Positions 34,750 through 40,134 of a DNA stretch of 41,465 bases are shown in pieces. The translations under genes and the position numbers were made by a program. Within the stretch, counting starts at the first letter, position 1; each line of letters opens with the position of its first letter. Under the pieces are notes generated by a model, which searched no databases, was not told the DNA's origin, and worked only from the letters and a program-made list of their open reading frames with translations. Source of the DNA: a virus (lineage: Duplodnaviria; Heunggongvirae; Uroviricota; Caudoviricetes); IMG/VR virus record IMGVR_UViG_2917881069_000006. One strand, given 5' to 3'.

Positions 34750-35289
34750 TCATATTGCCCCCAGCATGGTGGTAACCATCGCCATTAATGGACCAGCCAG
34801 ATCCGGGTCCACACGAAACATCGACACAATACCTTCACTCATTTCCTTCAGTTTCTGGTGGCGTGGTGCGTTGAGAATGACCGCCTGCTTTGCCTCACTG
34901 AGTTCCTTTTCCATTTCAGCCAGCCGAGCCATGAAGCTATCCTGCTCAACCAGGTGGCCGCGATATTCCAGCGGTAGTACCGCCAGAATTGCCGGGGTCA
35001 GTTCACGCACGTTATTTCGGTATTTTTCAGAATCGAATTTGTTATCGAGGAAGCGGAACAACTTCTGGCGTGCACGGCTGACATCATCAGGGAAATCGAT
35101 GGTGCCGCCGCCCAGCTCCCGATACTCATTCACAATGAGTGCGGCAACAACATCCTGATTATCTGCAGCCGACCAGGCGCGAACGGCATCACGGATTTTT
35201 TCGTGGCCTGGCGCCTGTTTTGTTTGAGAACGATTTATCACCGCAGTCGGGGTAAATCCGCTAGTCTGTTGGTATGTAATTGGTTGCAT
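34750..35289 (-). CDS. CII-like regulatory protein (phage CP76-type CII)
   Basis: 179-aa ORF in the cII position between cro-like and O, RBS AAGGA; family assignment from memory of the CP76-type CII proteins. Confidence 0.55.
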   Translation of the reverse strand: MQPITYQQTSGFTPTAVINRSQTKQAPGHEKIRDAVRAWSAADNQDVVAALIVNEYRELGGGTIDFPDDVSRARQKLFRFLDNKFDSEKYRNNVRELTPAILAVLPLEYRGHLVEQDSFMARLAEMEKELSEAKQAVILNAPRHQKLKEMSEGIVSMFRVDPDLAGPLMAMVTTMLGAI

Positions 35290-35370
35290 AATTGATTCCT
35301 TTAGTTTGAATTGACTGTTAATCAGTCTGTTAAGTTGATTGCTTATTGTTAAAGAGCGTGAAATGGAAAT

Positions 35371-35601
35371 TTAAGCTGCGTTCTTTTCGGTGTGTGGAAA
35401 CAACTTCGGAAGATCCGGGCGAATCTGGTATGCCTTCACAACTCCACCAGTAGCCGTAACAATGCTGCCGACATGTTCAGGGGATACCTTTGCTTTGTTG
35501 TGAAGCCACTTATAGACGGCCTGCTGTGAAACTTCGCAGGCATCGCCCAGTTTCTTTTGTGAACCAACTATATTGATCGCTGTTTTGATTGCTGGGTTCA
35601 T
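35371..35601 (-). CDS. Cro-like HTH regulator
   Basis: 76 aa, HTH QKKLGDACEVSQQAVYKWLH; RBS GGAGG; divergent from the CI-like gene. Confidence 0.7.
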   Translation of the reverse strand: MNPAIKTAINIVGSQKKLGDACEVSQQAVYKWLHNKAKVSPEHVGSIVTATGGVVKAYQIRPDLPKLFPHTEKNAA

Positions 35602-35705
35602 AACAACCTCCGTGGTTAATCTGAACCAAGATTAAAACTATGGTTGTTTTTAGTCAACAACCATTTTCGTTTGATGGAATAAAACCTTGGTTGTACATTT
35701 GGTCT
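35602..35705. promoter_or_regulatory. immunity-region operator/promoter segment between the cro-like and cI-like genes
   Basis: Palindromes with GTTGTT/AACAAC and TGGTT/AACCA half-sites, e.g. ATGGTTGTT-n7-AACAACCAT (35640-35664) and TGGTTAATCTGAACCA (35613-35628). Confidence 0.6.
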
Positions 35706-36395
35706 ATGAAAACAACACTCTCAGAAAGACTTAAAGAAGCCAGATCAGCGCGAGGCCTTACACAAAAGGCACTTGGGGATTTGGTTGGGGTTAGCCAGGC
35801 TGCTATTCAGAAAATCGAAACAGGGAAAGCTAACCAAACAACTAAAATCGTGGAGATCGCGAACGCTTTGGGTGTGCGCGCAGAATGGTTATCTTCTGGC
35901 ATTGGAAATATGTCAGACAGTACAGTGCAACCAATACAATCAACTCTCAGCCATTCCAAATACTTCAAGATTGACGTTCTTGATATAGAAGTCAGTGCTG
36001 GGCCGGGAGTCATCAACCGTGAGTTTGTAGAAGTTCTACGCTCGGTTGAGTACTCGTTTGACGATGCTCGTCACATGTTCGATGGTAGGAAGGCGGAAAA
36101 TATCCGCATCATTAACGTGCGTGGTGACAGCATGTCAGGAACTATCGAACCAGGTGATCTGCTGTTCGTTGATATCACTGTTAAATCTTTCGACGGTGAT
36201 GGTATCTATGCGTTTCTGTACGACGACACAGCCCATGTAAAGCGCCTGCAAATGATGAAGGATAAGCTGCTGGTCATCTCTGATAACAAAAGCTACTCAC
36301 CGTGGGACCCGATCGAGAAAGACGAGATGAACCGGGTGTTCATCTTCGGTAAGGTTATTGGGAGCATGCCGCAGACATATAGGAAGCATGGGTAG
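35706..36395 (+). CDS. CI-like repressor (HTH_XRE N-terminal domain, LexA-type S24 peptidase C-terminal domain)
   Basis: From MKTTLSERLKEARSARGLTQKALGDLVGVSQAAIQKIETGK...; C-terminal GDSM (Ser) and downstream Lys of the S24 autocleavage domain. Confidence 0.85.
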   Translation: MKTTLSERLKEARSARGLTQKALGDLVGVSQAAIQKIETGKANQTTKIVEIANALGVRAEWLSSGIGNMSDSTVQPIQSTLSHSKYFKIDVLDIEVSAGPGVINREFVEVLRSVEYSFDDARHMFDGRKAENIRIINVRGDSMSGTIEPGDLLFVDITVKSFDGDGIYAFLYDDTAHVKRLQMMKDKLLVISDNKSYSPWDPIEKDEMNRVFIFGKVIGSMPQTYRKHG

Positions 36396-36516
36396 TACCA
36401 ATTAAAAATTATCAACTGGGCATTGTGCTCATTCAGTAAAGAACTAATTCCTATCTTTGCTCTAGGTAGTAATATTAAGCCACCGCAATAATATCTTTAC
36501 CTAACGGCGTAAGAAT

Positions 36517-36544
36517 CCCGGTCACCGTGCCGGGTTTTCTTTTG
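36517..36544 (+). terminator. intrinsic terminator downstream of the cI-like gene
   Basis: Stem CCCGG-tcaccgtg-CCGGG followed by TTTTCTTTT. Confidence 0.65.
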
Positions 36545-36988
36545 CCCTCCCCTCATCACACACACCGTTAAAAAAACCACCATAACCTCGCTTCAGTTAT
36601 CGCTATGCGATTCAAGTCACAAAATAAATCCATCCTAAATACAACCAGTTATATCTAAAACAACCAATAAAACAACTTTTGTTGTTGACGATAAAACAAC
36701 TATAGTTTTAAATAAGTTCATCGCAACAACACAACGATACGGCAACCACCTGATTCACCGTTGCGATGACCGCTTAGATCCGCAGCTTGAATTTCAGCAG
36801 GCTCCGGGGAGTGCGAGGGGTGAAACGGACGCGTGAACGTCGGTGTGACCAGCTGAAATCAACTCAACACCTCATACCTCAGTCGCTTCAACAAGGCGGC
36901 TTAGTTATGACAACCGGCGGCCATCCACCGCCAGATACTGCGCAACCCCTCATTTGTTCAGCAGCCCAGCTTACGGGCAGGAGTTTTT

Positions 36989-37195
36989 ATGGTTCATCAA
37001 CATTACGGAACGCAGACCGTTAATCGCGGTGCGGTCATGCCAGGAATGCTGGTCAAACACAAAGATGGTACCTGGACAGCATCAGCTAATTTACGCGGAC
37101 GGCTTTATCTGCATCGCGGCATCGAGCGCACTTATACCCGTGACTTGCTCGTGGAAGTTTTTCTTGACGGACGCGGCAACGGCCTGAATCACTAA
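36989..37195 (+). CDS. hypothetical protein immediately upstream of gam
   Basis: 68-aa ORF with strong RBS AGGAG 5 nt before ATG (MVHQHYGTQTVNRGAVMPGMLVKHKDGTW...); no family recognised. Confidence 0.45.
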   Translation: MVHQHYGTQTVNRGAVMPGMLVKHKDGTWTASANLRGRLYLHRGIERTYTRDLLVEVFLDGRGNGLNH

Positions 37196-37270
37196 TCCCC
37201 TTTCCTGTTTTTCTAATCAGCCTGGCATTTCGCTGGCGATATTTTCACAGCCATTTTCAGGAGTTCAGCC

Positions 37271-40036: not shown

Positions 40037-40058
40037 ACATGAAAAGCAAAATCATCAG

Positions 40059-40079
40059 GGAGCTACAGGCTCCTTTTTT
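40059..40079 (+). terminator. intrinsic terminator
   Basis: Stem GGAGC-tacag-GCTCC followed by TTTTTT. Confidence 0.7.
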
Positions 40080-40134
40080 ATTATTCGCATTCACCCTCAA
40101 GCGTATTAACCAACAATTCAGGGATTAATGAAAG

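Follow-up and report, generated by a model that had tools for sequence, protein, structure and literature searches.

A conserved structured RNA in the early leftward leader of a lambdoid prophage type that lacks N, a candidate cis-acting antiterminator

Introduction

Here, we focus on core A, a conserved structured RNA in the early leftward leader of a temperate prophage. The DNA analyzed is a stretch of 41,465 nucleotides (nt), recorded as IMG/VR IMGVR_UViG_2917881069_000006 (Caudoviricetes), which as a whole is called the window. Part of it controls early gene expression in a temperate prophage of the lambda/DLP12 kind and is read here with the leftward operon on the plus strand. The prophage is of a type that is very common in E. 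coli and in which the N protein is absent. An earlier reading of the letters alone (the sequence-only reading) had proposed that early antitermination in this phage is either N-independent and put-RNA-like or dependent on a small unannotated protein. Lambdoid phages without N, and antitermination mediated by RNA, are already known from HK022 and HK639 (PMC9378689), and "put-like" is a guess routinely made by authors when N is missing (PMC12315714). What appears to be new here is core A itself, which is common and compact.

The leftward promoter and its leader

The leftward operator and promoter (OL and PL, 36641-36716, plus strand) combine AACAAC/GTTGTT operator repeats with a match to the promoter consensus. 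PL consists of a -35 hexamer TTGACG at 36685-36690, a 17-nt spacer and a -10 hexamer TTAAAT at 36708-36713, which places +1 at about 36719-36720. As the sequence-only reading had described, an operator palindrome overlaps this promoter: the perfect 16-bp (base pair) palindrome AACAACTTTTGTTGTT at 36671-36686 reaches into the -35 hexamer. A consensus promoter scan overlooked PL because it requires an A at position 2 of the -10 hexamer. PL and the rightward promoter, PR, have a core of about 35 nt in common (GTTGTTGAC.A.AAAACAAC.ATAGTTTTAA), as would be expected if one repressor governs both promoters, and the 17-mer AAAACAACTATAGTTTT differs between them at 1 of its 17 positions. Independent support for PL comes from mosaicism, with phages that have unrelated operators (Perceval, 4A7, 1W and others) turning homologous exactly at 36720/36721, the predicted +1. 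The distance from the -10 hexamer to CATCG also equals that of the annotated phi80 PL. Leftward transcription is predicted to start from PL at about 36720. Many otherwise unrelated lambdoid phages share the start of the PL transcript, CATCG(A/C)AAC(G/A)A(A/C)ACA.CGA (36719-36738 in the window, 2009-2027 in locus L007 and 2002-2020 in locus L008), and this common motif suggests a conserved role for the first 20 nt or so of the early-left RNA.

The leader that follows is modular, with a 5' arm, core A, module B and the kil ribosome-binding site as exchangeable parts. The minimum free energy fold has a possible helix between TCATCGCAAC (36718-36727), at the start of the 5' arm (36718-36764, plus strand), and GTTGCGATGA (36760-36769); in the group of locus L124 the sequence of this arm is different up to about 36753. 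Core A, a conserved structured RNA of 99 nt and the candidate cis-acting antiterminator, occupies 36765-36863 on the plus strand and begins about 45 nt past the predicted +1. Module B comes after it (36866-36935, plus strand). The first conserved gene of the leftward operon is kil (36989-37195, plus strand), preceded by the Shine-Dalgarno sequence AGGAG at 36979-36983. It belongs to the FtsZ inhibitor family (phrog_294, E 1e-37), is a coding sequence (CDS) of 68 amino acids (aa) in RefSeq, and is the gene that the sequence-only reading had placed upstream of gam. Further inside the leftward operon, an intrinsic-terminator-like hairpin with a T-run (40057-40085, plus strand) lies upstream of TraR-like, excisionase-like and integrase genes and separates them from PL; the phage therefore appears to need an antitermination device.

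Module B is composed of CAUACC, hairpin 1 (36879-36904), GUUAUGA and hairpin 2 (GGCGG-CCAUCCA-CCGCC, 36916-36932), and hairpin 1 covaries extensively. It is not specific to this phage type: of 43 kil loci from different Enterobacteriaceae species (L135-L177), 18 have it upstream of kil and on the kil strand (E <= 0.014). Among 17 upstream flanks shown, 14 have a hairpin-plus-T-run that precedes module B by about 10 nt or less. Module B was also seen at L004 2501-2561 and at L005 2501-2546, and it matches no Rfam family. The peptide MTTGGHPPP was considered as a proline-stalling upstream open reading frame (ORF) and rejected, with frame and peptide varying among genera while the hairpins stay.

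Core A, a conserved structured RNA

Of 5426 complete E. coli genomes, 2222 (41%) carry the 271-nt leader that contains core A (36720-36990), almost always once per genome. Within it, the density of polymorphic columns in core A is about half that of the adjacent kil. The surroundings of core A are far from constant: at least 17 unrelated PL/operator sequences lie upstream and at least 10 different contexts downstream, and its orientation is always with the promoter. Phage isolates from E. coli hosts that carry core A and have no annotated N include PhiR34_1, Turner, Perceval, 4A7 and 1W, and more divergent copies were met in IMG/VR contigs and in a prophage of Enterobacter. A covariance model of core A (R2) scores 127 bits in the window and 111 bits in the Enterobacter prophage. 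Core A is annotated neither in the 16 phage records that carry it nor in the RefSeq records inspected, and we found no published description of it in the literature and no Rfam family.

A consensus structure derived from 26 distinct sequences consists of two adjacent irregular stem-loops. Stem-loop I is formed by 36771-73/36813-15, 36780-82/36805-07 and 36784-89/36798-803, and stem-loop II by 36819-21/36848-50, 36825-26/36843-44 and 36828-30/36839-41. In the alignment 98.8% of cells are paired, and sliding the 3' partners lowers this to 25-39%. Four pairs are altered on both sides (AU to or from CG, GC to or from AU, and twice AU to or from GC), and these two-sided changes fall in the helices 36784-89/36798-803 and 36825-30/36839-44. 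A possible pseudoknot between loop and tail (36792-97/36853-58) is 100% paired, with one-sided G-U changes only. The sequence-only reading had named RNA folding and an Rfam search among its checks. The search produced no family: the leader gave nothing at gathering score, and E-value mode returned only chance-level matches (E 1-9). The folds are without thermodynamic support, the whole leader having a z of -1.45 against shuffled sequences. In core A, compensatory changes support two helices, and the remaining helices are invariant or without support.

Exchange of core A with known or annotated antitermination elements

Many lambdoid PL transcripts open with the same 56 nt or so (CATCGAAACGAAACATCGA...GCCAGCGGCG), and 148 loci with this common 5' leader, pooled from all scans, were surveyed for what occupies the slot behind it. 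Put was found in 50 loci, a boxA followed by a phi80-type RNA in 58 and core A in 15, leaving 25 with none of the three. Most of those shown among the 25 have a fourth sequence, and one is a phi80-type variant that the patterns missed. The exchange is seen when prophage L303 is set beside phage HK639. Their 5' flanks agree at 52 of 56 nt and their 3' flanks at 582 of 600 nt, and between these flanks HK639 has an annotated "putL-like antiterminator RNA" (81 nt) where L303 has core A (101 nt). The identity of this HK639 element as put follows the GenBank feature of that name and the literature (PMC9378689). Other prophages have kept the PL and operators of phi80, with core A in place of the phi80 element. 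Core A can thus be regarded as one allele of this slot, the others being elements of early antitermination that are either known (put) or annotated as such (nutL).

The put RNA of HK022 and HK639 (putL and putR) is a cis-acting, protein-independent antiterminator that binds the zinc-binding domain of the beta' subunit (PMC9378689). Like core A, it is located just past PL in a lambdoid phage without N, in the same slot in HK639-like prophages. Put is compact and made up of two irregular stem-loops, an arrangement that the consensus structure of core A would resemble. However, core A measures 99 nt compared to about 72 nt for put, and it lacks the put signatures GAACGGCGCG, UAAACCAUGCGUCGG and CGGCAAU. 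Mutations in the rpoC zinc-binding domain block put antitermination. A covariance model built from 21 put sequences (R1) scores 96.7 bits for HK022 putL, 88.6 for HK639 putL and 50.1 for HK022 putR. Direct homology of core A to either put or the phi80-type RNA was considered, as short motifs in common can be made out by eye around ACGG.CAA; it was rejected after negative searches with the covariance model and with nhmmer.

The "nutL" of phi80 (JX871397, features "nutL boxA" and "nutL core") is a boxA followed by a multi-helix RNA of about 110 nt with clear covariation and a GAGA tetraloop hairpin. This RNA is common to phi80, HK225, KO-TP1, Stx2a phages such as TL-2011c, Hamiltonella phage APSE-1 and Edwardsiella phage Edno5, and has no Rfam match. 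The phi80-type leader takes the same slot as core A after the same 5' leader, at times with the same PL and operators, yet it differs from core A in sequence and fold and contains a boxA. An nhmmer profile made from seven members has no match in the window and matched 7 of the 43 Enterobacteriaceae kil loci. Among the loci retrieved, those of HK225 and KO-TP1 have the same phi80-type leader and no phi80 N homologue. Besides L007 (phi80), where it spans 2060-2215, the phi80-type RNA was located in L004, L005, L009-L013 and L165-L175.

Two further arrangements of the slot were observed. The fourth type (L445, L449, L458 and L172) extends about 60-260 nt past the CATCGAAACG anchor, with a degenerate boxA (TGCTCATTAAGAA), then a different GC-rich sequence, and at the end the same TTTACCAGCAGCTCTTTGCGAGGGGCTGACGG hairpin. 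The leaders of L360 and L377 are hybrids: they have put stem I (…TAAACCATGCGTCGG), but directly behind it a consensus boxA (CGCTCTTTAACAAT) stands in for put stem II.

Function of core A

Because core A occupies the put slot of HK639-like phages, we favor the reading that it is a cis-acting, N-independent antiterminator RNA that would act like put without being a member of the put family, and we put the chances of this at about even. From its position we infer that core A would modify RNA polymerase and bring about antitermination. The N-independent, put-RNA-like antitermination of the sequence-only reading survives as the best account of the leader, except that the covariance model places core A outside the put family. 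In the proposed mechanism, cI (of the LexA type, probably translated from a leaderless transcript) and a YdaS-type Cro would compete at the AACAAC/GTTGTT operators in OR and OL. Upon derepression, transcription from PL would start at about 36720 and proceed through an untranslated leader of 270 nt and kil-gam-bet-exo to xis and int. Core A would fold into its two irregular stem-loops as it emerges and remain with RNA polymerase in cis. The polymerase bound by core A would then resist pausing and termination, so that PL transcripts could pass terminators such as that at 40057-40085 and reach xis and int. Processive antitermination of distal terminators by a cis-acting structured RNA within an operon is exemplified by the EAR RNA of the Bacillus subtilis eps operon, a functional analogy to core A only, with organism, sequence and context all unrelated.

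Several points weigh against this reading. The shared slot is circumstantial, and another RNA function at the head of the operon could be what is selected. The put model R1 has no match in 36700-37000 at E <= 10, and core A is present in a single copy, in contrast to the putL and putR of HK022. Its fold is no more stable than that of shuffled sequences (z = -0.19). Compensatory changes support two helices only and were contributed by a small number of lineages that are related to each other (the Enterobacter-type variants), and the helix 36819-21/36848-50 is without covariation and is broken by G36820A in 19 loci. In addition, some of the IMG/VR prophages may be defective.

The leader could instead be an ordinary regulatory 5' untranslated region (UTR) that acts on kil mRNA stability, processing or translation or through Rho-dependent attenuation, with the operon read by other means or xis and int served by a promoter of their own. 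Kil is toxic and is the first gene past the leader, module B accompanies the kil-proximal region in many genera, the C-rich, G-poor stretch 36857-36893 resembles a Rho loading site by eye, and the fold energy is unremarkable, all of which would suit such a UTR. However, core A stays with PL rather than with kil: contexts of the Enterobacter and HK639 type put 0.6-1.5 kb and other genes between the two, and the ten downstream contexts disfavor a UTR that serves one gene. Moreover, core A replaces put, an established antiterminator, with the flanks retained. We therefore consider a regulatory UTR unlikely, though it is the alternative that fares best.

Somewhat less probable still is that core A acts as a nut-like recruitment site for an unrecognised factor in trans, be it a phage protein encoded elsewhere or a set of host factors (NusA, NusG and others), instead of acting on its own. 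Phages of the phi80 type have a boxA element annotated as nutL in the same slot, and a perfect boxA is found in the rightward operon of this phage, which probably uses Nus factors. The layout recalls N and nut of lambda, with core A at the place of nutL (between PL and the first gene) and a boxA at the place of nutR (between cro and the cII-like gene). Unlike lambda, this phage lacks an N gene, its PL leader is without a boxA, and no boxB is conserved. The best boxA candidate in the leader, TCGCTTCAACAA at 36883, has three mismatches, is worse in most relatives and was rejected, and the genes found downstream of core A include none with a consistent link to it. The remark of the sequence-only reading that no N gene is obvious held up under more sensitive searches, with Pfam, PHROGs and tblastn finding no N homologue in the interval, the window or the complete PhiR34_1 genome. 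The tblastn queries, lambda N and phi80 N, returned nothing in the window or in all of PhiR34_1. The annotation of PhiR34_1 lists no N either, nor does that of the early regions retrieved for PhiR47_2 and Perceval.

That the conserved block is a feature of the DNA, for instance a site bound by a protein, an element that causes pausing or a joint left by recombination at a mosaic boundary, would agree with the location of core A at a junction of exchangeable modules, but we consider it very improbable, given that the compensatory changes keep an RNA type of pairing that includes G-U on one strand and that core A is always oriented with the promoter.

The least probable of all, and hardly credible, is a miniature analogue of N encoded by the leader as an arginine-rich peptide, which is what became of the small unannotated antitermination protein in the sequence-only reading. 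That reading had also estimated roughly 250 nt without a convincing ORF. The interval from +1 (about 36720) to the kil ATG at 36989 is indeed poor in ORFs and has no conserved frame, but it measures about 270 nt and does hold ORFs: a 78-aa ORF with TTG/GTG starts at 36787-37023 and one from an ATG at 36907, with neither frame conserved and no Pfam or PHROGs match to the leader ORFs. From a GTG start, the arginine-rich ORF (MKRTRERRCDQLK..., 36820-37023, plus strand) reads MKRTRERRCDQLKS..., and the KRTRERR at its N-terminus is similar to the arginine-rich motif found in lambda N. A GGAG lies 7 nt before the GTG, and an ATG replaces the GTG in 12 of 90 unique leader variants collected from IMG/VR. 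In those same 90 variants, however, the ORF is interrupted by a TAG at 36880 (codon 21, directly after codon 20) in 33 and frameshifted by a 5-nt duplication in 4, and 86 have two extra nt near 36943, so that the 3' part is in the kil frame and the C-terminal frame is another one. Enterobacter-type variants end it after one to four codons (GTG-AAG-CGG-ACG-TGA or GTG-TAA). With about four synonymous and about five non-synonymous changes there is no synonymous bias, and the ORF, being truncated, frameshifted or absent in relatives, was rejected as an N-like gene.

The variants show two further things about this part of the leader. The window is itself in a minority of 4 of the 90, in which a 20-nt patch at 36933-36954 is replaced and 2 nt shorter. 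In the majority, a small ORF from the ATG at 36907 is in frame with kil. The long "Kil" ORFs of 128-139 aa in some phage records were set aside as an artefact of the frame opened by the 2-nt difference; RefSeq and the PHROG back the 68-aa Kil.

Returning to core A as a cis-acting antiterminator, a broader claim would be that it represents a second class of antiterminator RNAs that need no protein, unrelated to put in structure, which bind and modify RNA polymerase; core A would then be a cassette interchangeable with put and carried by about 40% of sequenced E. coli, and that the slot is a hotspot for at least four RNA solutions (put, core A, boxA with the phi80-type RNA, and the fourth type). 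We advance this tentatively and rate it rather below an even chance. To our knowledge, put is the only enterobacterial phage RNA known to make RNA polymerase resistant to termination alone. If the claim is true, a second, unrelated RNA doing the job of put would reveal which features are essential to such RNAs, and would offer a fresh way to study the zinc-binding domain and the channel through which RNA exits. Put is a key model for how a nascent RNA reprograms RNA polymerase (PMC9378689). Core A acting in this way would also explain early gene expression and excision in many E. coli lambdoid prophages that lack N. The region between cI and kil, which is blank in RefSeq in thousands of genomes, would then carry a conserved RNA with a function.

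The rightward operon

On the minus strand, the spacer between the cro-like and the cII-like gene contains the boxA CGCTCTTTAACAA (35346-35358) at the position equivalent to nutR, 56 nt upstream of the cII-like ATG. It matches the boxA consensus GYTCTTTAANA (PMC5725501) perfectly. The only exact occurrence of GCTCTTTAACAA in the window is this boxA, which is present in 47 of 116 core-A loci having at least 2.5 kb upstream, these 47 being the relatives with the same cro/cII module. CGCTCTTTAACAA equals the rrn boxA at 12 of 13 positions. The likeness to rrn-type boxA/Nus antitermination (NusB-NusE-NusA-NusG-SuhB) is limited to this rightward boxA, which is outside the PL leader. The effect of boxA and Nus can be anti-Rho or, as in suhB, repressive. 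With the core A model R2, no second copy of core A was found in the rightward operon (the next match in the window, E 0.21, is elsewhere). Having a consensus boxA and no RNA of the core A type, the rightward operon probably makes use of the Nus complex of the host to withstand Rho, without N.

A boxB-like hairpin (5 bp and 5 nt, GACUG-AUUAA-CAGUC) starts 18 nt past boxA. As DNA this is GACTG-ATTAA-CAGTC at 35313-35327 (minus strand), which arose from a 12-nt tandem duplication and occurs in only 2 of the 47 loci. It was rejected as a boxB at the nutR position and is probably a recent accident. No conserved boxB was found after boxA in the 47 relatives.

The immunity region and its surroundings

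The divergent S24 repressor and small helix-turn-helix (HTH) Cro, the repeats common to the PR and PL operators and the replication genes past cro identify a lambdoid immunity region, of the non-lambda type that the sequence-only reading had recognized. The cI-like repressor (35706-36395, plus strand) combines an HTH_3 domain (E 1e-11) with an S24 LexA-type autopeptidase domain (Peptidase_S24, E 1e-18; both Pfam), belongs to phrog_4 (E 7e-73) and is the identical 690-nt CDS in RefSeq. Divergent from it, the cro-like gene (35371-35601, minus strand) encodes an HTH protein of the YdaS family (Pfam YdaS_toxin E 7e-17 and P22_Cro E 7e-5; phrog_35). The first gene after cro in the rightward operon is the cII-like gene (34750-35289, minus strand) of the YdaT family (Pfam YdaT_toxin E 7e-30; phrog_163, "CII-like transcriptional activator", E 9e-67). 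The minus strand also carries replication genes of the O/P type, and on the plus strand kil, gam, bet and exo come after a gap of 590 nt past cI, to which RefSeq gives no annotation.

The OR region (35602-35705) between the start codons of cI and cro is exactly 104 nt long, the length first read from the sequence, and the palindromes noted there were borne out. ACAAC/GTTGT occurs four times in these 104 nt and five times in the 117-nt OL region, a roughly 20-fold enrichment over the background of 1.76 per kb in the whole window. A 25-bp palindrome, ATGGTTGTT-N7-AACAACCAT, lies at 35640-35664. PR (minus strand) has a -35 hexamer TTGACT at 35652-35657, a 17-nt spacer and a -10 hexamer TAATCT at 35629-35634, and is supported by its consensus match and its similarity to PL. 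A PRM-like promoter, the presumed source of cI transcripts, was identified from its consensus match on the plus strand (TTGATG at 35671-35676, a 17-nt spacer and TACATT at 35694-35699). Its +1 would fall on the A of the cI ATG, and the cI mRNA is therefore probably leaderless. The cI mRNA of lambda is likewise leaderless.

Across the early region (35327-37270) the window is 98% identical to phages PhiR34_1 and Turner. The virion module of PhiR34_1 is lambda-like and its nin region DLP12-like. Over the 271-nt leader, the chromosome of E. coli WP5-S17-ESBL-11 matches the window with 100% identity. Between cI and OL (36396-36640), the window has nothing except a terminator-like hairpin with a T-run (36517-36543, plus strand), at a site that corresponds to the position of rexAB in lambda and that in relatives holds accessory or defence-like genes. 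Examples are GevT/GevA in PhiR47_2, a HipA-family kinase with DUF3037 in E. coli EC2341 and two genes in Perceval. For a lambdoid prophage of E. coli, a 2026 paper reports a small RNA (sRNA), svsR, that is encoded where the cI gene ends, on its 3' side (PMC12803456). It was considered as the leader RNA and rejected, as it maps to the cI 3' end (equivalent to 36300-36395 in the window) and not to the leader. Elsewhere, Rfam matches at gathering score were obtained side by side in the nin region for the C4 antisense RNA (67.5 bits) and the IsrK Hfq-binding sRNA (54.8 bits), and near the Q region for a cspA-type thermoregulator leader (158 bits), with the coordinates of the three lying within 31946-32127 and 26214-26606 on the minus strand.

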